Of a DNA stretch of 63,603 bases, positions 50,765 to 63,603 are shown one piece after another. Where the stretch lies: the IMG/VR virus record IMGVR_UViG_3300035665_000029. One strand, 5' to 3'. The stretch is from a virus. Every line of letters starts with the position of its first letter. Position 1 is the stretch's first letter. Below the pieces are notes generated by a model. It saw nothing but the letters and a program-made list of their open reading frames with translations, ran no database searches and was not told the DNA's origin. The position numbers were made by a program, and so were the translations under genes.

Positions 50765-53307
50765 TATTCACCTTTTGCCGGTTTGTTTTTTGTCTGAGCT
50801 TCTAGCGTTGCCGCTGTTTTCAACGCATCAATAGCCATCTTCTGATTGCTACTGCGTTTCTGTTCAGTAACCTGTGCTGCTGTTTTTAAACCATCAATTT
50901 TCAATCGAGTGGCGTCACCATCACGTTTAGCAGTTAGCTCTGCCGCAGATTTCAACGAGTTCACCTTATTGGTTTGTGCTGCTGTACGTTCTTGTGCTGC
51001 AATACGCTCACGTTCAACTTGGATCTGCTGTGATTTCAGCTGAATATCCGCTTGGTCTTTCTGGGCTTTGCGCTGCTGCTCCGCCGCTTTTAACTGCAAC
51101 TCTTGCATCTGCATCTGAACCAATGGGTCTTGCGCTTGTTGTTGCGCCTGTTTTTGAGCCATTTCCGCTTGATTGCTCTGTAACAACTGCTGTGCTGCTT
51201 GAGCCAATAAAGGCGATAACTTAGCTTCCACTTCAGGGTCCATGTGAATGTCTTCACCTGACTCGTCTTTTTGTGGTGGCAATGCAAAACCTAACTGCTG
51301 TTCAATCTGTTTGCGGTACTCAAACCCTAAATGCTCAGCAATATGTGCTTGAGCTGCCGCTGCAATCTGAGGTGCTGCTGGACTATTCTGTAGCATCTGT
51401 TGGATTTTTGGGTCTTGTATAGCAGCCATATGTACTTGGATATGTGCTTGGTGATCTTGGTTTATAAACGCTTTGACCGGTTTCATCGCCAAGATGTTTT
51501 GATTTTCTGTAATCGGGTCTAACGGTTTCATATCCTCAGCCATCGGTACTAACTTCTGAGCGTCTTTAATACCCAATACATCCAGCATCTGACGATGTAA
51601 CAACGGCATGTTGTAGATTTGAGGCGACTGCTGAGCCAGCTGTAGTACCGCTTGGTATTGGACAATCTTCTGCGCCATTGTAGAGGCGTTCGGATCAGAC
51701 ACAGGAATAACGTCAACCATCGAATAGTCAGAGCGTTTAGCCTTTCTATTACCGGTATCTGGCTCGTAGTTGTAGTCTTCCGGTGCATAGGCAGCGATGA
51801 TGCCTTTTAACAGTACCAATTCTTGTTTAAAGCTGTAGTGAACCCGTGCTTGAATCGCACTCATTGACTTCAAAGTACGTTCTAAAATAGCCAGCGTGGT
51901 ACCTACCGGCGCTTGGCCTGACATATCCGCTACTTGTAGGTCAGCCGCGTTAGCAAATCGTCTACCCTCATCAACAATCTGGTTAAGCAACGCCATTAAT
52001 GTCTGGCTAGGTTCTTTATATGGTAGTGGGATGATGTTATCGCGCATTGCGCCACTTGGTACGTCTACATCACGCCATTCACCCGGGGCTATCGGGGTGT
52101 CATCACCTTTAATCCGCATTCCTCTAGCTTTGAAGCCACCCGGGAGGTTAGATAATGTACCTGCGTCCACAAGCTGTCTAATAAGAGAAGTGCCAGATTT
52201 AGCAAAAGTGCCAACAAGATGAATAAGCCCGAAACAATAAAAGCCAAAACCCGGCACATAGCCGTAATGCACGAAATGCTGACGTTTTTGATAAGATTCA
52301 TCGCCTTCTTCCCAGTTTCTGCGAATAGATAAGATTGTGTTGCTGCCTTTCTCAACGGTAACCACGTATGGCAACGCAATACCGGTCGTTTCCCCGTCTT
52401 CTTCATGCTCAAAACCCGGCAAATCGAGGTCAACGTGCATCTCCAACACCTTGTATCGGTCGTCAGATGTCGCTCTAAAACCCATCTTTTCGGCAATTTT
52501 CTTCTCGACTTCGTCCAAAACGTTGTCTGGTTCACCCAAATCAATGTCTCTATAGAACCCTGCGACCTGCAAACGACGTAATTCGTTCTCTGTTTTACGC
52601 ATTACATGAGTTACACGCTCTGCTTGTTCTAAATTCATCGCACCATAAGGCACAACAAGGTCTTCAGCAGGTACAAATACGGAAACTTGACGGTCTAAAT
52701 GCGGATCGAAGTACACTTTCTTGAACGCATTACCTGACATACCTAAGCCCCACAGCATACGCTCGTGTTCTGGCCTAAATTCGGTCATCTCATCAGTCAA
52801 CTGATAGTTCATGTCCTCTTGGACACGTACCGCTGCGTCTTTTTTCTCTTGCGTTTCTTTACCAATAATCTGAGTTTTAACCGGACCCGCTGCAGGGAAC
52901 GTACTCATCATGGTTTCAGCTTGGAATTTAACCAACGCCTCGCTTAACAGCGGGTGATACACACCACAAGCGCCTTCCCAAGGCTCTGACCGCTCCTCAA
53001 TCTTCATACCTAACAGCTCAATACCGTCGACATATGTTTGCATCCAGTCTTTTCTGGAGGCTATATCATCATCAAAGTCAGACAGTAAGTCGCCGGCTAG
53101 AGTTAACAGGTCTTTCTCATCCATTTCTTCCGCTAAGTTAGCGTTGAAATCTTCAGACATGTCTCTATCAGGCATCAAGTCGATCTCTATACCACCGATT
53201 GTCATTGTGACATCATCAGGGTTCTCAATTTCGATCTCTAAGTCCGGTGTTTCGGGTAATGAGCCAATGCCTTGTGGGGCTTGGTATAACGATTTATCAA
53301 TTGCCAT
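50764..53307 (-). CDS. Portal protein with Gln/Ala/Lys-rich C-terminal extension
   Basis: Size and position directly after the terminase. ATG at 53307 is preferred over the TTG at 53325. Confidence 0.6.
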   Translation of the reverse strand: MAIDKSLYQAPQGIGSLPETPDLEIEIENPDDVTMTIGGIEIDLMPDRDMSEDFNANLAEEMDEKDLLTLAGDLLSDFDDDIASRKDWMQTYVDGIELLGMKIEERSEPWEGACGVYHPLLSEALVKFQAETMMSTFPAAGPVKTQIIGKETQEKKDAAVRVQEDMNYQLTDEMTEFRPEHERMLWGLGMSGNAFKKVYFDPHLDRQVSVFVPAEDLVVPYGAMNLEQAERVTHVMRKTENELRRLQVAGFYRDIDLGEPDNVLDEVEKKIAEKMGFRATSDDRYKVLEMHVDLDLPGFEHEEDGETTGIALPYVVTVEKGSNTILSIRRNWEEGDESYQKRQHFVHYGYVPGFGFYCFGLIHLVGTFAKSGTSLIRQLVDAGTLSNLPGGFKARGMRIKGDDTPIAPGEWRDVDVPSGAMRDNIIPLPYKEPSQTLMALLNQIVDEGRRFANAADLQVADMSGQAPVGTTLAILERTLKSMSAIQARVHYSFKQELVLLKGIIAAYAPEDYNYEPDTGNRKAKRSDYSMVDVIPVSDPNASTMAQKIVQYQAVLQLAQQSPQIYNMPLLHRQMLDVLGIKDAQKLVPMAEDMKPLDPITENQNILAMKPVKAFINQDHQAHIQVHMAAIQDPKIQQMLQNSPAAPQIAAAAQAHIAEHLGFEYRKQIEQQLGFALPPQKDESGEDIHMDPEVEAKLSPLLAQAAQQLLQSNQAEMAQKQAQQQAQDPLVQMQMQELQLKAAEQQRKAQKDQADIQLKSQQIQVERERIAAQERTAAQTNKVNSLKSAAELTAKRDGDATRLKIDGLKTAAQVTEQKRSSNQKMAIDALKTAATLEAQTKNKPAKGE

Positions 53308-53321
53308 GTCGGGTAATCCTT

Positions 53322-53588
53322 TCAAGTAGTTGTGTTTTGTCTCGTGTTTATACCTTTAAAATGCACTCTATACAATTCGGGATTATCTTGTATCAATTCC
53401 TCTATTATATTGCTCAAATCAACAACACCTTCAGTGTTAACTTCATATACCATACGAACGGCTTCAAAATCTGTTGGTACCTTTGCATCTTGTGGGATAG
53501 CCGCAGTCTCACTCTCTAGCGTTTTACGCATCTGCTTTATCCGCGCTCGAGTCTCAAAGTAACTCACAATTCTCTCTGCTATAGTCAT
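53322..53588 (-). CDS. Hypothetical protein (88 aa)
   Basis: Track ORF with overlapping junctions. Confidence 0.45.
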   Translation of the reverse strand: MTIAERIVSYFETRARIKQMRKTLESETAAIPQDAKVPTDFEAVRMVYEVNTEGVVDLSNIIEELIQDNPELYRVHFKGINTRQNTTT

Positions 53589-54724
53589 CAGTAATACGCC
53601 ACCTTTCGTCTAAAGTAATGTTCCTCTTCCGGTTCATCCATTTTTGTGCCGATGAACCCACCTTGGCGGAACCTTAGCATTGCTTGTGAAACTGTATCGA
53701 CAAGGTCGTCGTGCGTTCCTGCTGGGAAAGAGGCAACGTCATCTATCAGCTCATCAGCCCATCTTGCCTCCGGCGCCCACACGAACCCCGATGCAAATAT
53801 ATCAGCCACACTGTTAAGTCTTGAAATCTTGTCATTACCTTTAGTCGGCGTGTACTCCTGCACCGGCACACCCATACGACGCAACTCTTGTATTAATGAC
53901 GCACCAGAAGCCCGTTTCTCGATGATGACACTATCTGGTTGCCACTCTTGATACGCCTCGTATGCCCACTCCTTTAGCTCTGGGAACTCCACACGCTTCT
54001 TAACAGCATCAAGCAGGATGATATTCGGGCGTAAAACCCCTTCCTCATCCTCTATATAAAACACACCCCACACCGTCAACGCACTGTAGTCAGCCCGGTT
54101 ATGCTTCTCGAACGCGGTATCCCACGACAGTAGTGTGAACTCGATATTATTAGGTGGTGCATCTCTATCCCAGACTCTCCACCACTCACGCTTGATAATC
54201 GCACCTTCTTCGGACGTCGGGTTCTGTTGGTACTGTGCTTGCCAGAACCGGTTATCCAGAGAGATCTTGGTTTTCTCTAGCTCTTCAAGCTTCCAGAACT
54301 CCGGCCATACCGGTTGCCCACTTGGTAAGATTGCAGGGAACTCAAGCACTTCCCATTGATCGCCGTCTGGATTCCGTATCATGTTATCAATAAGTCGCCC
54401 TACTAAGTCCCTTTTCGACCATCGAGTCATAACCACTATCAAAGCCCCGCCCGGCTGTAACCGCTGACGAGGACCTGTCATATAGTAATCATACACAGCA
54501 TCAAACACTTTAGGGTCGTTACTCTTACCTTCTTGTTCACTTAAAGGGTCATCGATGATACAATTATGGGTTAAAATTAACCTCTTGTTTGTAGGGTTAC
54601 CAACGTAGTAAGTATTACTACCGTTTACATGTAAATTGTAAAAGATCTCTGATGGTATAGAGACTGTATTTACAGTCTCTACAACGATTTCACGGGTAAA
54701 AAACTGTTTAATCTTTTTCAGCAT
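53588..54724 (-). CDS. terL: Terminase large subunit, C-terminal fragment preceded by the split-intein C half (IntC, 54 aa)
   Basis: ...FYNLHVNGSNTYYV...LILTHN|CIIDDP junction. Nuclease motifs LSWDTAF..ADYSA and HDDLVDTVSQA. Confidence 0.85.
   Translation of the reverse strand: MLKKIKQFFTREIVVETVNTVSIPSEIFYNLHVNGSNTYYVGNPTNKRLILTHNCIIDDPLSEQEGKSNDPKVFDAVYDYYMTGPRQRLQPGGALIVVMTRWSKRDLVGRLIDNMIRNPDGDQWEVLEFPAILPSGQPVWPEFWKLEELEKTKISLDNRFWQAQYQQNPTSEEGAIIKREWWRVWDRDAPPNNIEFTLLSWDTAFEKHNRADYSALTVWGVFYIEDEEGVLRPNIILLDAVKKRVEFPELKEWAYEAYQEWQPDSVIIEKRASGASLIQELRRMGVPVQEYTPTKGNDKISRLNSVADIFASGFVWAPEARWADELIDDVASFPAGTHDDLVDTVSQAMLRFRQGGFIGTKMDEPEEEHYFRRKVAYY
54563..54724 (-). mobile_element. Split intein, C-terminal half (ends ...THN; +1 Cys codon at 54562-54560)
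   Basis: Block F/G-like sequence; own ATG with GGAG upstream. Confidence 0.75.
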
Positions 54725-55307
54725 AACTCCACTTATACCCTATAGCCGTTTTTGCTTTTCCAGCTATAGCTGGATATATCGACCGTTTATCCACACCTAA
54801 GGCTTTAGCTGCTGCACCTAATGATGGATACTCAGCAATGAATTCACCCTCTTTTGTGTACTGATGTACTTTACGGATAACATGGCTCATCCTAGGTGCT
54901 TGTATAGCTTCTTCTGGTGTCATTCCCATCACATATATCCTGTGGTGGATCATATCCCTAGTAAGGCCTGTGCGCCTAACCCATTGTGCTATACCTAGTG
55001 TTTCCCCAAAAACTGTTATACGGATTGTGTTGCGCTTGTTATTTTGTTGTGTCTCTTTAGACGCCCAACGACAGTTACTTGGTTCATAGTCCCCTGCAGT
55101 ATCTATACGATCAAGTGTGAACTCATCTGGGCATGGTCCCATATCTTCGTAGAAATTAGAATACCTACCCCATCTATCTGCAACAGAAACCCCTTTACCT
55201 CCATAATTAGGGTAGTTTTCCGCCTTTGGGTTATTGCATCTTTGCCGCATCATCGCCCAAATATTGTATTCACGTTGTGATGTAGTACCTGTTTTACCTT
55301 TAGCCAT
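54708..55307 (-). CDS. Free-standing HNH-type homing endonuclease with C-terminal NUMOD1/IENR1-like HTH, located between the two intein halves
   Basis: YNIWAMMRQRCNNP..NYPNYGGKGVSV..RW, LDRID...NCRWA...Q.NNKRN, and C-terminal LGAAAKALGVDKRSIY. RBS GGAGAC before ATG 55307. Confidence 0.75.
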   Translation of the reverse strand: MAKGKTGTTSQREYNIWAMMRQRCNNPKAENYPNYGGKGVSVADRWGRYSNFYEDMGPCPDEFTLDRIDTAGDYEPSNCRWASKETQQNNKRNTIRITVFGETLGIAQWVRRTGLTRDMIHHRIYVMGMTPEEAIQAPRMSHVIRKVHQYTKEGEFIAEYPSLGAAAKALGVDKRSIYPAIAGKAKTAIGYKWSYAEKD

Positions 55308-55603
55308 TGTAGTCTCCACATTTGTGTATAAGACTTTATGATAACCCTTAGTGGGGTCATCGTCAATATATCCCCCGGCTTTACCTCTTCAGCAGGTACC
55401 CACCCTCTGTTTTTCGTCCATATAGGGTGGTTTGGGGTGAATGTGTATTCCCCGTTAATACGTGTCTCTATACTAGATTCAGACGTCAGTGTATGCAAAA
55501 CAGTCACATACCCTTCCTCTGCTAAAACCAAATCCCCTACTTCTATTTGTTCTATCGGTGTGTAACCCTTATGTGTTTTTACTAACGACCCTACCTTCAC
55601 ACA
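55250..55603 (-). mobile_element. Split intein, N-terminal half (starts at Cys codon 55603-55601)
   Basis: CVKVGSLVKTHKGYTPIEQIEVGDLV (block A) and TPNHPIW (block B), directly after the terminase ...GKGADL. Confidence 0.75.
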
Positions 55604-56128
55604 GAGGTCAGCACCTTTACCTGCTACCGCACCACCAACACCCATCGCGATATAGACACCATTCTTGTCCGTATTCCATCGAGCTGCAGCAGTTGAGTCA
55701 CGTCGCAGGCGTGTATCAGGAAATATCGTGTGGTACAAATCAGAGTCAACCAAGTTCCTTACTTTACGACCAAACCCTTCAGCTAGGTCTGCCGTATGTG
55801 AAAGCTGCATGATTTGTCTGTTCGGGTGTAGCCCTAAATACCACGCTGGAAGTAGGTATGATGCAAATTCAGACTTCGTGTGTCTAGGTGCAAGACATAC
55901 TATTAACCGTTTAAGCTCCCCTTTTGCTACCCGCTCAAACGCTCTAGCCATCTTCGCATGGTGTGATCCGTGAATAAACTCAGGCCACATCACCTTAACA
56001 AACTCAAGAAAGTCTTTCTGGGCTGCTTCACGTTTTTTGCGACTCTCAATCTCTGACAAAAGCTCTAAGGCTTTTATCCTGTCTGTCTCAGACATCTGTA
56101 GGAGAATGTTAGGTGCAATATTAGTCAT
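55250..56128 (-). CDS. terL: Terminase large subunit, N-terminal (ATPase) fragment fused to the split-intein N half
   Basis: The 175-aa N-extein ends GVGGAVAGKGADL, which is the Walker B region completed by CIIDDP in the other fragment. Confidence 0.8.
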   Translation of the reverse strand: MTNIAPNILLQMSETDRIKALELLSEIESRKKREAAQKDFLEFVKVMWPEFIHGSHHAKMARAFERVAKGELKRLIVCLAPRHTKSEFASYLLPAWYLGLHPNRQIMQLSHTADLAEGFGRKVRNLVDSDLYHTIFPDTRLRRDSTAAARWNTDKNGVYIAMGVGGAVAGKGADLCVKVGSLVKTHKGYTPIEQIEVGDLVLAEEGYVTVLHTLTSESSIETRINGEYTFTPNHPIWTKNRGWVPAEEVKPGDILTMTPLRVIIKSYTQMWRLQWLKVKQVLHHNVNTIFGR

Positions 56129-56609
56129 CAGGGTTGATAACCTTCAGCTCGTTCATGTACTTACCTAACAAGGACTGTAAGTCCTTCTCTAGCTCATCAG
56201 TGGGTTTTTTATTGATGTCGACAGTGATCTTAGTCTCGAAAAGTCCTACCTCGGCAATCTTACCGATCTTCTCTATAGCACCTAGGGCTATATTCTCTTT
56301 CTCGCTTTCAGCAAGGTCAAGTAAACGTGAGATGGCATAGGTACGTAATCGGGCAGACTCATCTGCCATAGAGAAATCGTATCGCTGCAGTAACCGACGT
56401 ACCGCATTGGCAGCACCGGGGGTTGATGGTTTAGCGGGCGCGGAAGGTGTTTGGAAAACAATGGCGCGAGCTTCGCGTTCGTCATCTGACGTTGACGAGG
56501 GGTCTAATTCATTGGCCGTAATAAAGTCTGGATCGCAGCAGGCTGCATTCCATAAGTCGGCAATTGGTCTATCTGTGGTCCAGATGAAGTTCAGGATGTT
56601 TGTGTCCAT
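56121..56609 (-). CDS. Terminase small subunit candidate (162 aa)
   Basis: First gene of the late arm, overlapping the terL start. Assigned from position only. Confidence 0.35.
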   Translation of the reverse strand: MDTNILNFIWTTDRPIADLWNAACCDPDFITANELDPSSTSDDEREARAIVFQTPSAPAKPSTPGAANAVRRLLQRYDFSMADESARLRTYAISRLLDLAESEKENIALGAIEKIGKIAEVGLFETKITVDINKKPTDELEKDLQSLLGKYMNELKVINPDD

Positions 56610-56732
56610 AAGTGTGGCGGGTGAGCCAGAATGACTGCATTGTAAGGGTCTAAAAATTTTTATGCAAAATTTTTGACAGGGGCGCTTTTTGTTTGAGGGG
56701 GTGGGTGCTGGTGGGGGAAAATCAGTGGGCTG

Positions 56733-56761
56733 ATTTTAACATGGATAGCGGGGTGGGTCAA
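56733..56761 (-). promoter_or_regulatory. Sigma70-like promoter for the minus-strand arm (TTGACC-17 nt-TAAAAT)
   Basis: Read on the reverse complement, about 120 nt upstream of the 56609 ATG. Confidence 0.4.
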
Positions 56762-56907
56762 GAAAATTTATATGCATAAAAATTTTAGGGTCATTGTGGG
56801 GGGTAATCAGGAATTTTTGCGGTTGAGTGGCGAAATTCGAGATACGTAGTATCGTGCGCGAAGTGGCCGAATTCGGGGGGTGGGGGGTGTACCCCGTATG
56901 ACTGGGG

Positions 56908-56935
56908 TTGACAAAAAAAGATTTGTTGGTATAAT
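56908..56935 (+). promoter_or_regulatory. Consensus sigma70 promoter for the early arm (TTGACA-16 nt-TATAAT)
   Basis: Perfect -35 and -10 hexamers, about 115 nt upstream of the 57051 ATG. Confidence 0.7.
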
Positions 56936-58701: not shown

Positions 58702-59508
58702 ATGTATTATACACATTCCTACAACAACACAGATTTGAGGTCTAAAATGCGTCGAGATATTTCTATAGACAAATTACGTACCATGATTGAGTACGACCCC
58801 CTTACAGGTATGTTCACGTGGCTTGAGCGAAGTCGAGGAAGACCTTTAGGCATTTTTGCCGGAACACCGGTAACTAAGATATACCGTGGACTGTTTACGC
58901 GGGTGTATGACCCTGTTACTGGCGAGTTTTTGCGGTCTATTCCTGCACCCGACAAGGTCGAGCATCTAGGTTACGTGCTGCGCATCGAGGGCAGAACATA
59001 TCCCGCGCATACCTTAGGGTATGCACTACACACAGGTAAATGGCACCGTGTATCGCATATAAATGGGGATAAGTATGATAATCGGTGGGTCAATCTCACA
59101 ACTGACCGTGAGAAGTCACGGTTACTTAGTGCTCAAAGGGAAACTGTAATTCAGCGTGCCGTTGATGAGCAACTAAAAGCTAAAGCCGCTAAAGCCGCTA
59201 AAGATATGCAGCGGAATAAAGACATCGCAGATGCTGTTTGGCGGTTGTATAAATACAACCCTGATAACGGGCTCTTCATGCGGATACATGACAAATATGA
59301 AGACTGGACTATAGGCACTCCAGTTAAGGGTAATGGGTCACGCACATTGAGCTTCAGGGATAAGATTACAGGGGCAAAAAGTAACTGCCCATGCCATATA
59401 GCAGCTTTTATACTGCACACAGGTGCATACCCTGAAGGGCGAGTGACTCACCTCAATGGTGACAAGAACGACAATAGATGGTCAAACCTGACCATCAAAC
59501 AATCGTAG
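58702..59508 (+). CDS. Tandem-duplicated HNH_3-type (homing) endonuclease-like protein
   Basis: Two copies of the pattern ...YPAHTLGYALHTGKW..VSHINGDKYDNRWVNL / ...CHIAAFILHTGAYP..VTHLNGDKNDNRWSNL. Start may be 58747. Confidence 0.65.
   Translation: MYYTHSYNNTDLRSKMRRDISIDKLRTMIEYDPLTGMFTWLERSRGRPLGIFAGTPVTKIYRGLFTRVYDPVTGEFLRSIPAPDKVEHLGYVLRIEGRTYPAHTLGYALHTGKWHRVSHINGDKYDNRWVNLTTDREKSRLLSAQRETVIQRAVDEQLKAKAAKAAKDMQRNKDIADAVWRLYKYNPDNGLFMRIHDKYEDWTIGTPVKGNGSRTLSFRDKITGAKSNCPCHIAAFILHTGAYPEGRVTHLNGDKNDNRWSNLTIKQS

Positions 59509-61413: not shown

Positions 61414-61417
<4 letters not shown>
61250..61417 (+). CDS. Small membrane protein (55 aa) leading into the array
   Basis: ATGA overlaps at both ends; MRVLLVMLLIGIATV hydrophobic N-terminus. 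Confidence 0.5.
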
Positions 61418-61715
<298 letters not shown>

Positions 61716-61719
<4 letters not shown>

Positions 61720-61955
61720 AGAAAATCGTAGTAATTACATCGGGCTGGGTAGTGATGGGTGACGTCACTGAGCATGAAGATAGACTAACTATTGACGACG
61801 CAAGCGTCATCAGGGTATGGGGTACCACCGCTGGGTTAGGTGAGATTGCCCTTAACGGGCCAACAACAAGTACCGTCTTAGACCCTGCAGGTGTTGTGGA
61901 GGTGTATAAACCTGCAGTCGTTATGCAAATCCCCTGCACTTATGATGTTAGATAA
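61716..61955 (+). CDS. Conserved 79-aa array partner protein, copy 1
   Basis: MKKIVVITSGWVVMGDVTEHEDRLTIDDASVIRVWGTTAGLGEIALNGPTT...; ATGA overlap with the upstream stop. Confidence 0.7.
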
Positions 61956-62283
61956 CGGCTACGGCGACGGCAGAGGCAACGGCGACGGCAGAGGTAACGG
62001 CTACGGCTACGGCTACGGCAACGGCAGAGGCGACGGCTACGGCCACGGCTACGGCGACGGCCACGGCGACGGCGACAGCGACGGCTACGGCAGAGGCAAC
62101 GGCAGAGGCGACGGCAGAGGCTACGGCTACGGCAACGGTAACGGCAGAGGCAACGGCGACAGCGACGGCTACGACAGAGGCAACGGCAAAGAAATCTCAT
62201 ACACAACTAGACTACTTATACCAGACGTAGACCCTGTGCTAGCTGCAGCTTATCAATCACAAATAATAGGAATAAACCAATGA
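61942..62283 (+). CDS. Gly-X dipeptide-repeat protein, copy 2 (113 aa)
   Basis: The ATGATG start is inside the last codons of the 79-aa gene; conserved tail (KEISYTT... variant). Confidence 0.7.
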   Translation: MMLDNGYGDGRGNGDGRGNGYGYGYGNGRGDGYGHGYGDGHGDGDSDGYGRGNGRGDGRGYGYGNGNGRGNGDSDGYDRGNGKEISYTTRLLIPDVDPVLAAAYQSQIIGINQ

Positions 62284-62519
62284 AGAAAATCGTAGTAATT
62301 ACATCAGGCTGGGTAGTGATGGGTGACGTCACTGAGCATGAAGATAGACTAACTATTGACGACGCAAGCGTCATCAGGGTATGGGGTACCACCGCTGGGT
62401 TAGGTGAGATTGCCCTTAACGGGCCAACAACAAGTACCGTCTTAGACCCTGCAGGTGTTGTGGAGGTGTATAAACCTGCAGTCGTTATGCAAATCCCCTG
62501 CACTTATGATGTTAGATAA
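62280..62519 (+). CDS. Conserved 79-aa array partner protein, copy 2
   Basis: Differs from copy 1 by one synonymous nucleotide (by eye). Confidence 0.7.
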   Translation: MKKIVVITSGWVVMGDVTEHEDRLTIDDASVIRVWGTTAGLGEIALNGPTTSTVLDPAGVVEVYKPAVVMQIPCTYDVR

Positions 62520-62829
62520 CGGCTACGGCGACGGCAGAGGCGACGGCGACGGCGACGGCGACGGCAACGGCGACGGCTACGGCAGAGGCGACGGCTACGG
62601 CTACGACTACGGCGACGGCTACGGCAGAGGCGACGGCGACGGCAGAGGCTACGGCTACGGCGACGGCAACGGCAGAGGCTACGGCAGAGGCTACGGCAGA
62701 GGCAACGGCAGAGGCAACGGCAACGGCTACGGCAAAGAAAACCCATACACAACTAGGTTACTTATACCAGACGTAGACCCTGTGCTAACTGCAGCTTATC
62801 AATCACAATTAATAGGAATAAATCAATGA
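62506..62829 (+). CDS. Gly-X dipeptide-repeat protein, copy 3 (107 aa)
   Basis: Same architecture as copy 1. Confidence 0.7.
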   Translation: MMLDNGYGDGRGDGDGDGDGNGDGYGRGDGYGYDYGDGYGRGDGDGRGYGYGDGNGRGYGRGYGRGNGRGNGNGYGKENPYTTRLLIPDVDPVLTAAYQSQLIGINQ

Positions 62830-63065
62830 AGAAAATCGTAGTAATTACATCAGGCTGGGTAGTGATGGGTGACGTCACTGAGCATGAAGATAGACTAACT
62901 ATTGACGACGCAAGCGTCATCAGGGTATGGGGTACCACCGCTGGGTTAGGTGAGATTGCCCTTAACGGGCCAACAACAAGTACCGTCTTAGACCCTGCAG
63001 GTGTTGTGGAGGTGTATAAACCTGCAGTCGTTATGCAAATCCCCTGCACATATGATGCGGAGTAG
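62826..63065 (+). CDS. Conserved 79-aa array partner protein, copy 3 (C-terminus ...TYDAE)
   Basis: Same as copy 1 except the last codons. Confidence 0.7.
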   Translation: MKKIVVITSGWVVMGDVTEHEDRLTIDDASVIRVWGTTAGLGEIALNGPTTSTVLDPAGVVEVYKPAVVMQIPCTYDAE

Positions 63066-63351
63066 CGGCTACGGCTACGGCTACGGCAACGGCACCGGCA
63101 ACGGCGACGGCTACGGCTACGGCTACGGCTACGGCGACGGCTACGGCAGAGGCGACGGCGACGGCTACGGCTACGGCTACGGCTACGGCAACGGCAACGG
63201 CTACGGCAGAGGCTACGGCAGAGGCAACGGCAGAGGCAACGGCAACGGCAACGGCAAAGAAAACCCATACACAACTAGGTTACTTATACCAGACGTAGAC
63301 CCTGTGCTAACTGCAGCTTATCAATCACAATTAATAGGAATAAATCAATGA
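63052..63351 (+). CDS. Gly-X dipeptide-repeat protein, copy 4 (99 aa, MMRSS leader)
   Basis: Same architecture as copy 1. Confidence 0.7.
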   Translation: MMRSSGYGYGYGNGTGNGDGYGYGYGYGDGYGRGDGDGYGYGYGYGNGNGYGRGYGRGNGRGNGNGNGKENPYTTRLLIPDVDPVLTAAYQSQLIGINQ

Positions 63352-63587
63352 AGAAAATCGTAGTAATTACATCAGGCTGGGTAGTGATGGGTGACGTCAC
63401 TGAGCATGAAGATAGACTAACTATTGACGACGCAAGCGTCATCAGGGTATGGGGTACCACCGCTGGGTTAGGTGAGATTGCCCTTAACGGGCCAACAACA
63501 AGTACCGTCTTAGACCCTGCAGGTGTTGTGGAGGTGTATAAACCTGCAGTCGTTATGCAAATCCCCTGCACATATGATGCGGAGTAG
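63348..63587 (+). CDS. Conserved 79-aa array partner protein, copy 4
   Basis: Its 3' part is duplicated at window positions 1-111. Confidence 0.7.
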   Translation: MKKIVVITSGWVVMGDVTEHEDRLTIDDASVIRVWGTTAGLGEIALNGPTTSTVLDPAGVVEVYKPAVVMQIPCTYDAE

Positions 63588-63603
63588 CGGCTACGGCTAC
63601 GGC

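Follow-up and report, generated by a model that had tools for sequence, protein, structure and literature searches.

The minus strand of a viral DNA of 63,603 nucleotides (nt; IMG/VR virus record IMGVR_UViG_3300035665_000029, referred to here as a whole as the window) carries a large-terminase gene, terL, whose coding sequence is divided between two open reading frames (ORFs), with a third ORF between them. The locus raises the question of whether this is a genuine fractured gene, the products of which would be joined by protein trans-splicing through a split intein, or a gene that only appears to be broken because of sequencing error, an intron, or decay. A preliminary description, made from the sequence alone, had proposed the fractured gene. 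In the present study, we compared the locus with public metagenomic sequences, protein profiles and solved structures. We consider it probable (roughly 85%) that this is a genuine fractured terL, consisting of a split intein and a free-standing I-HmuI-like endonuclease, in the only large-terminase gene of a marine phage of about 64 kb. Judged by its motifs and alignments, the intein is of the class 1 type and is broken at the canonical endonuclease-insertion loop, with the endonuclease gene lodged in the break.

Organization of the terL locus

All three ORFs are on the minus strand: ORF-N (56128..55250), the endonuclease ORF (55307..54708), and ORF-C (54724..53588). Every feature named in the preliminary description (the fractured terL, the two intein halves, and the endonuclease gene between them) was found where it had been placed, and the comparisons described below support the arrangement. 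ORF-N encodes 292 amino acids (aa), i.e. residues 1-175 of the terminase TerL, followed by a 117-aa N-intein and a stop codon. The junction reads ...GVGGAVAGKGADL/CVKVGSLVKTHKGYTPIEQIEVGDLV...TPNHPIW..., and the intein begins with CVKVGSLV. The endonuclease ORF encodes 199 aa in a frame other than that of ORF-N, from an ATG at 55307 (or an alternative GTG at 55319) to position 54708; the ribosome-binding sequence of its own that had been attributed to it, GGAGAC, is indeed present 6 nt before the ATG. ORF-C encodes 378 aa from an ATG, namely a 54-aa C-intein (...FYNLHVNGSNTYYV...LILTHN/CIIDDPLSE...) and then residues 176-499 of TerL. ORF-N and ORF-C have a common reading frame (they are 1404 nt apart), in which 13 stop codons intervene. 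The endonuclease ORF overlaps both neighbours, by 58 nt with ORF-N when counted from the ATG (70 nt from the GTG) and by 17 nt with ORF-C, the ATG of which sits within the 3' end of the endonuclease gene.

Terminase identity and insertion site

The two terminase halves cover the PHROG family phrog_38 colinearly, ORF-N at positions 253-406 and ORF-C at positions 406-713. The predicted product of 175 + 324 = 499 aa aligns end to end with the 492-aa TerL of Pelagibacter phage HTVC027P (53% identity). The Walker A-like APRHTKSE and the (C)IIDD sequence are conserved between the two, in line with a TerL that has an N-terminal ATPase and a C-terminal RNase H-like nuclease. Megablast found no match to the region in cultured phage genomes, in which relatives exist only at the protein level; the nearest are HTVC023P-type pelagiphages, with TerL identity of about 50%.

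The size of mature TerL predicted earlier is the same as that of an intein-less metagenomic allele (P0012, 499 aa), and the two proteins align without a gap. At the nucleotide level, the blastn alignment with this empty locus (L013) ends precisely with the third base of codon 175 and picks up again in the C-extein. Thus, alignment to an uninterrupted terL confirms the insertion site, with a precise insert of 1041 nt; the spliced coding sequence (CDS) of the window and the empty allele are both 1500 nt. Further near-identical alleles that lack the intein were found (P0015 and P0017, each 500 aa), and the 90%-identity cluster of the C-extein holds many proteins of 488-499 aa.

The insertion site lies within the Walker B strand, between GADL and (C/L)IIDDP. 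The nearest solved TerL by sequence is that of T7, gp19 (E 0.17), and the stretch with the insertion aligns with its RADIIIADD, which on this alignment is taken as the Walker B strand. It had been stated earlier that splicing restores Walker B as GADL-IIDDP. The motif is restored by CIIDDP, but the spliced junction would be GADL-C-IIDDP (junction peptide GADLCIIDDPLSEQEGK), where intein-less alleles have GADL-L-IIDDP, Cys+1 replacing Leu176. Walker A is on one polypeptide (ORF-N), and Walker B and the nuclease domain are on the other (ORF-C). From this division of motifs, neither TerL fragment should be active alone. No second terL was found within the window, nor were any paralogues of the intein or endonuclease of the terL element.

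Occurrence on independent contigs

The exact ORF-N protein was found on 13 contigs from at least six independent samples (ENA and Logan), and the gene calls were 292, 199 and 378 aa on all of them. Two such loci, with 99.2% and 98.5% identity to the window, have 27 and 47 substitutions over 3.1-3.4 kb and no indel. Because these loci differ by substitutions only, a frameshift artefact is excluded by the independent assemblies. Extein differences from two related loci, L003 and L004, are synonymous in 34 of 35 cases. Because the exteins are under purifying selection and the window has no second terL, it is unlikely, on these sequence data, that the terL of the window is a pseudogene.

The layout with three genes is kept at 67% nucleotide identity in L008, L009, L010 and L016 (297, 203 and 377 aa), and also in the distant L054 and L055 and in the GC-rich L011. 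The two halves have one frame in L008 and different frames in L011. Of the 120 best homologues of ORF-N, about 27 clusters consist of N-fragments in which a stop follows soon after an N-intein. Walker B reads CIIDYP in L008 and L009 versus CIIDDP in the near-identical L016; CIIDYP may be a tolerated variant, the mark of a defective genome, or an assembly error.

The split intein

Intein blocks A and B had been recognized at the end of ORF-N, and blocks F and G at the start of ORF-C. The motifs are there, and they are colinear with those of a contiguous mini-intein (P0255) and of solved inteins. The families Hint_2, PT-HINT and Vint match ORF-N from Cys176, at scores below Pfam's own cut-offs. 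Cys1 and the His of block B are invariant in 11 split N-intein homologues, and the terminal His-Asn and Cys+1 are invariant across six fused split inteins; all of the class 1 motifs (Cys1, TxxH, His-Asn, and Cys+1) are present. Block B is Thr/Ser-x-x-His across lineages with N-inteins that are only 22-56% identical to that of the window.

The profile made from the six fused N and C halves matches solved inteins in both the N and the C blocks (8w20, E 1.4e-10; the BIL domain 2lwy, 4.8e-10; gp41-1, 2e-6). Furthermore, it is colinear with the 129-aa mini-intein of P0255, which occupies the same site (hhalign probability 99.6%, E 8e-25). The sole gap of that alignment is the break point of the halves, which is the canonical endonuclease-insertion loop. 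With an N-part of 117 aa and a C-part of 54 aa, the intein does not belong to the atypical split class of GOS-TerL and AceL-TerL, in which the break is near the N-terminus.

The free-standing endonuclease

The endonuclease ORF matches phrog_3377, an HNH endonuclease family (E 4e-51), in PHROG and NUMOD1 (E 4e-7) in Pfam. For the nuclease module, no match was found in Pfam-A or NCBIfam at E <= 0.1, and no sequence match in PDB. The AF2 model made from 43 homologues (pLDDT 89) has strands at residues 63-67 and 79-83 and a helix at 84-89, and its top Foldseek match in PDB is the homing endonuclease I-HmuI (1u3e, E 2.8e-5). The best profile match is also 1u3e, in which DHKD corresponds to DRID of the window protein, and the C-terminal helix-turn-helix (HTH) falls on I-HmuI residues 117-171. 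The protein has the layout of the I-HmuI group, i.e. a beta-beta-alpha-metal core and then NUMOD/HTH DNA-binding modules. The earlier assignment to HNH-type endonucleases with a NUMOD1-like HTH is accordingly sound with respect to fold and modules, but not with respect to the HNH catalytic His, which is an Arg. The family of the nuclease module (54978-55307, minus strand) is very large, with 111,074 representative clusters at E <= 1e-3, and Tyr74 in its omega-loop is invariant in the endonuclease family. The endonuclease ORF is present or absent together with the intein, and not with terL.

Signatures of mobility

L003 differs from the window at one position in the 1041-nt element and at 46 positions in 2073 nt of flank (binomial P = 1.2e-7). 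Over the N-extein, the whole element and the adjoining 250 nt of the C-extein, L004 is identical to the window (P = 1e-9). The flank differences of both loci are nearly all synonymous. In the comparison with the empty allele, 19% of nucleotides 181-780 of the spliced CDS are mismatched, as against 4.6% in the rest (Fisher P = 3e-19), so that the divergence is concentrated around the insertion site, within about 350 nt on its upstream and 250 nt on its downstream side. The contrast between element and flanks, together with the conversion-like tracts, indicates probable recent homing with co-conversion of the flank; replacement by recombination with an empty allele would be expected to leave the same pattern. 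By these comparisons, the element is polymorphic in the phage population and much younger than its flanks.

Alternative explanations

One alternative is that the break is an error of sequencing or assembly, and that the true gene is a contiguous intein with an in-frame HNH domain. ORF-N and ORF-C do share a frame, and at one locus (L012, protein P0030) a frameshift lets the N-intein read into the C-terminal half of the endonuclease. However, two compensating frameshifts would be required; the same ORFs were recovered from the independent samples by different assemblers, including variants in which 27-47 bases are substituted and indels are absent; three ORFs are still present in relatives at 67% identity; the halves of L011 are in different frames; and the endonuclease ORF has an ATG of its own, preceded by a Shine-Dalgarno sequence. 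The chance of such an error is negligible. The removal of the interruption at the RNA level is also extremely improbable. In that case, for example, a group I intron carrying the HNH ORF would be spliced out to recreate a contiguous mini-intein gene. Enzymes of the I-HmuI type are classically encoded by introns, and in both the window and L008 the two halves share a frame. However, a search of 53300-56700 on both strands gave no Rfam match at E <= 1, the overlaps of the endonuclease ORF with both neighbours leave no non-coding room for a ribozyme core, and the N and C frames differ in L011. Furthermore, the halves of another locus, L052, are separate without any endonuclease gene, and the downstream half has a strong Shine-Dalgarno sequence of its own.

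Several observations on the intein and the endonuclease themselves weigh against an active, trans-splicing element. Block F of the window intein is non-canonical, with Asn at both the usual Asp and the usual His positions (FYNLHV..SNTYYV; FYNLHVNGSNTYYV), and a canonical block F, MVDITVEPSHEF, is found in the type-2 relatives, a second intein lineage at the same site. The BIL domain 2lwy likewise has Asn at the first of these positions, and not all inteins have the Asp and His of block F. An AF2 model of the fused intein, built from a single sequence, gave no information (pLDDT 31), and the charge complementarity of the halves is weak and inconsistent among relatives. As for the endonuclease, the Asp-His of I-HmuI corresponds to Asp66-Arg67, so that the canonical catalytic His is replaced by Arg, as in all 43 close homologues and in 158 of the 159 instances of the motif in the best 150 of the distant representatives; and the nuclease module often occurs in two to four copies per protein, possibly for DNA binding rather than catalysis. 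The unusual block F would suit the idea that the TerL fragments form a non-covalent two-subunit enzyme and that the intein halves associate without splicing, as in NrdA of phage Aeh1, split by the endonuclease gene mobE. Phage enzymes in fragments that assemble without splicing are documented (PMC3045599). Nevertheless, the splice nucleophiles, TxxH and His-Asn are invariant across lineages with N-inteins of 22-56% identity, which is unexpected if association alone mattered, and the ATPase would probably be disrupted by some 170 aa of intein left inside its Walker B strand. Non-covalent assembly is disfavoured because it leaves the conserved splice nucleophiles unexplained, and we regard it as very unlikely. 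The Arg, the repeated module, and the absence of a Pfam or NCBIfam match for that module would in turn suit a middle ORF that is not an active homing endonuclease, being either an inactivated His-Me finger that only binds DNA or an HNH protein associated with packaging; the element would then spread only by ordinary recombination. HNH proteins adjoining terminases can be packaging cofactors. Set against this are the association of the ORF with the intein rather than with terL, the youth of the element relative to its flanks with conversion-like tracts around it, and the I-HmuI-like modular layout, which is typical of homing enzymes. Furthermore, PacI, a His-Me finger enzyme without the His, cleaves via a Tyr in the omega-loop (PMC5714182), and this precedent can be combined with the invariant Tyr74. 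Thus, the lack of activity seems unlikely to us, and endonuclease activity is plausible from the sequence.

According to the preferred reading, a fractured terL with a split intein and a homing endonuclease, the three genes would share the transcription of the late packaging operon. The two intein halves would come together and trans-splice to give the 499-aa TerL with Cys in place of Leu176. During co-infection, the endonuclease would cut an intein-less terL, and repair would copy the whole element with a few hundred nt of flank; a hairpin over the Shine-Dalgarno sequence may damp translation of the endonuclease. We infer both trans-splicing and cleavage at the window locus from its sequence. 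It is also reasonable to suppose that packaging would depend on trans-splicing.

Comparison with known fractured genes

Dassa, London, Stoddard, Schueler-Furman and Pietrokovski first described fractured genes, in 2009, for the gp41 helicase, NrdA, NrdJ, IMPDH, DnaE, DNA ligase, and a phage terminase (PMC2677866). The remark in the preliminary description that the arrangement was not known for a terminase was therefore mistaken; their list includes one, and GOS-TerL and AceL-TerL have been characterized (PMC11766414). As in the loci of Dassa et al., the two gene halves of the window are neighbours on one strand, each carries half of a split intein, and they enclose a free-standing endonuclease gene. 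In both cases this gene runs at its 3' end into the start of the downstream half, and the hairpin that precedes it in their loci may have a counterpart in the one predicted here. Derivatives without the endonuclease (their gp41-7; here L052) and an origin in marine phage metagenomes are also common to both, and block B of the window resembles that of NrdJ-1 (TPDHPVYTKNRGYV versus TPNHPIWTKNRGWV). However, their endonucleases are GIY-YIG or Vsr-like, whereas that of the window is I-HmuI-like (His-Me finger and NUMOD1). Their terminase is gp17-like and has an unusual break with a 122-aa C-part, whereas the window intein is broken at the canonical loop (117 and 54 aa), and the terL, nearest by sequence to T7 gp19 among solved relatives, is broken at the Walker B strand.

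GOS-TerL and AceL-TerL are also natural split inteins with Cys+1 in large-terminase genes of phages from aquatic metagenomes. Their split is atypical, the N-part having 25-37 aa and the C-part 104-115 aa, in contrast to the 117-aa N-part and 54-aa C-part of the window intein, and their trans-splicing rates have been tabulated (PMC11766414). Because these rates were measured, TerL can be matured by trans-splicing. PolB of the Pseudomonas jumbo phage MIJ3 is another phage gene in two ORFs with intein halves and an HNH-family ORF between them; its host gene and intein differ from those of the window, and it was reported from one genome, with no population evidence (PMC6892783). In actinobacteriophages, TerL, especially the nucleotide-binding region of the ATPase, is a favoured host of contiguous inteins, and out-of-frame endonuclease ORFs occur within inteins (bioRxiv 10.1101/2025.01.02.630785). 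In contrast to the window intein, those inteins are contiguous, mostly with LAGLIDADG endonucleases, and lie in unrelated TerL lineages at other sites. The endonuclease of the window has the same order of modules as I-HmuI (1u3e), a beta-beta-alpha-metal core and then NUMOD/HTH modules. However, I-HmuI is encoded by an intron and has the catalytic Asp-His, whereas the window enzyme has Asp-Arg and the invariant omega-loop Tyr, which is reminiscent of the His-less PacI.

What is new here is the canonical-break intein in terL, the endonuclease family, and the view at the population level; we do not claim the insertion site itself as new. TerL is essential and present in one copy per phage genome, and here it is split across the ATPase active site, so that reassembly would be needed for every burst. 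The locus may thus be a strong natural test of how efficient a required trans-splicing reaction has to be. A TerL split intein with the canonical break might also be a tool for protein ligation beside gp41-1, NrdJ-1 and the atypical TerL inteins. In public annotations, ORF-N is nameless and the endonuclease is a "hypothetical protein". Automated pipelines therefore undercount intact terminases in such marine phages.

Proposed stages of gene breaking at one site

Alleles with different states of the insertion were found at this one site. Empty alleles are represented by P0012 and others. The empty allele P0245 (501 aa) has Cys+1 (GSHL-C-LIDDP), and its N-extein end, HALGFGTNAAGKGSHL, matches that of the split N-fragment P0028; its Cys+1 may be the scar of a precise intein loss or may mark a pre-adapted insertion site. 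The contiguous mini-intein of P0255 (L057) has flanks that are 95% identical to those of the L055/L056 lineage, which has a split intein and a 253-aa endonuclease. Frameshifted or broken endonuclease genes occur in L012, L051, and possibly L056. In L052 (940-1100), the endonuclease gene has been deleted from a split terL, and the halves remain separate genes. The 122-nt spacer between them retains a 3' remnant of the endonuclease gene (...GGxxxAGGYKWRY), which provides the AGGAGG Shine-Dalgarno sequence and the ATG of the C half. To judge from this sequence, L052 is an argument for a split form that is viable without the endonuclease. The stages correspond to steps I-III in the gene-breaking model that Dassa et al. 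proposed, with which the layout of the window also agrees. The overlaps at both ends of the endonuclease gene are among the matching details, and the hairpin predicted in window-type elements may be another.

A second insertion site was found in the same motif, six residues downstream (LLIIDDP/C), in P0023 and P0026 (L053); it has a related split intein and an endonuclease of the same family. When IMG/VR was scanned with a narrower N-intein profile, 35 loci were obtained, and only L016 is a split terL at the same site. Most of the others are contiguous inteins with varied exteins and the block B motif HPxWTxNRGW. Two IMG/VR loci, L030 and L033, have a TerL of the same family with a long contiguous intein (together with the C-extein, about 670 aa between the intein Cys and the stop codon). 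The intein site of these two is nearby but different, ...GEYFA/C and ...GEFFA/C, just before a GVGG motif.

The locus adds a set of alleles that covers the whole proposed gene-breaking cycle, and points to a huge endonuclease-like family with Arg for His. A more far-reaching proposal is that living populations keep every stage of gene breaking at one Walker B site, and that a very large, uncurated His-less branch of the His-Me family (Asp-Arg...Tyr...Asn) drives the element by PacI-like Tyr cleavage. We put this forward tentatively, and doubt that both parts will prove correct. Were they correct, one could follow at this locus, in nature, how an essential gene is broken, and the endonuclease would be a new catalytic variant of homing enzymes.

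Features of the locus and neighbouring genes

The features of the locus are listed in Table 1. Promoter-like sites in the region number 11, compared with 7.5 +/- 2.5 in shuffles, and this enrichment is not significant. For the hairpin predicted over the Shine-Dalgarno sequence of the endonuclease gene, an analogue of different sequence is present in the 67%-identical relative L008 (z-score -3.6), and it is absent or inconsistent in the type-2 relatives.

Table 1. Predicted features of the fractured terL locus, with window coordinates
Feature	Position	Strand	Characteristics and basis
N-extein, TerL 1-175	55604..56128	-	Walker A-like APRHTKSE = residues 80-87; C-terminal GADL; phrog_4758 E 1e-40 and phrog_38 E 1e-38 (PHROG large terminase); aligns with HTVC027P TerL and P0012
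N-intein, 117 aa	55253..55603	-	Cys1 (block A), TPNH (block B); tail of about 30 aa overlapping the endonuclease start; stop codon 55250-55252
Endonuclease gene, free-standing, 199 aa	54708..55307	-	N-terminal His-Me-finger-like module (DR...Y...N...N) and NUMOD1/HTH modules
Shine-Dalgarno-like GGAGAC	55312..55317	-	6 nt (from GGAG) 5' of the endonuclease ATG; read from the sequence
Predicted RNA hairpin over the endonuclease Shine-Dalgarno sequence	55311..55335	-	Folding z-score -2.2; suggestive only
Promoter-like TTGACG-17-TATCAT	55338..55366	-	In the N-intein coding region, just 5' of the endonuclease gene; consensus scan 10/12; weak
C-intein, 54 aa	54563..54724	-	Block F = FYNLHVNGSNTYYV; block G = LILTHN
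C-extein, TerL 176-499	53588..54562	-	Cys+1, Walker B IIDD, RNase H-like nuclease domain, stop codon; phrog_38 E 2e-62, Terminase_6C E 5.7e-12 (Pfam), TIGR01630 E 5.6e-16; 94% identity to P0012
Whole putative mobile insert (N-intein, endonuclease gene and C-intein)	54563..55603	-	Exactly 1041 nt relative to the empty allele

Two small ORFs on the minus strand adjoin terL. One (56121-56609, 162 aa, ATGACTAA) is at the position of a small-terminase gene and overlaps the start of ORF-N by 8 nt, and the other (53322-53588, 88 aa) separates terL from the portal gene; no PHROG family was matched by either at E <= 1e-5. Upstream of the former, divergent promoter-like sites (56733-56935) were found in the 440 nt that separate the packaging/structural cluster from the plus-strand one. 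The site on the plus strand (56908-56935) is a perfect TTGACA-16-TATAAT with an upstream TG, and that on the minus strand (56761-56733) is TTGACC-17-TAAAAT.

The divergent cluster contains a second free-standing HNH endonuclease gene (58702-59508, plus strand, 268 aa; phrog_99, E 6e-33), which is about 2.5 kb from terL and is unrelated in sequence to the terL endonuclease. An HNH_3 ORF of similar size (253 aa) at the upstream end of the related contig L002 may be the same gene. At the ends of the window (61414-63603 and 47-415), there is a tandem array of at least five paralogous small ORFs of about 100-130 aa, with a spacing of about 520-565 nt. Their products consist mostly of Gly-Asp/Asn/Arg-Gly-Tyr repeats, encoded with a 12-nt period, and end alike, in the conserved ...NPYTTRLLIPDVDPVLAAAYQSQLIGINQ. 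Further copies of the 30 nt with which the window opens are at 61845, 62409, 62955 and 63477; because these are at its far end, the array appears to cross the contig ends.

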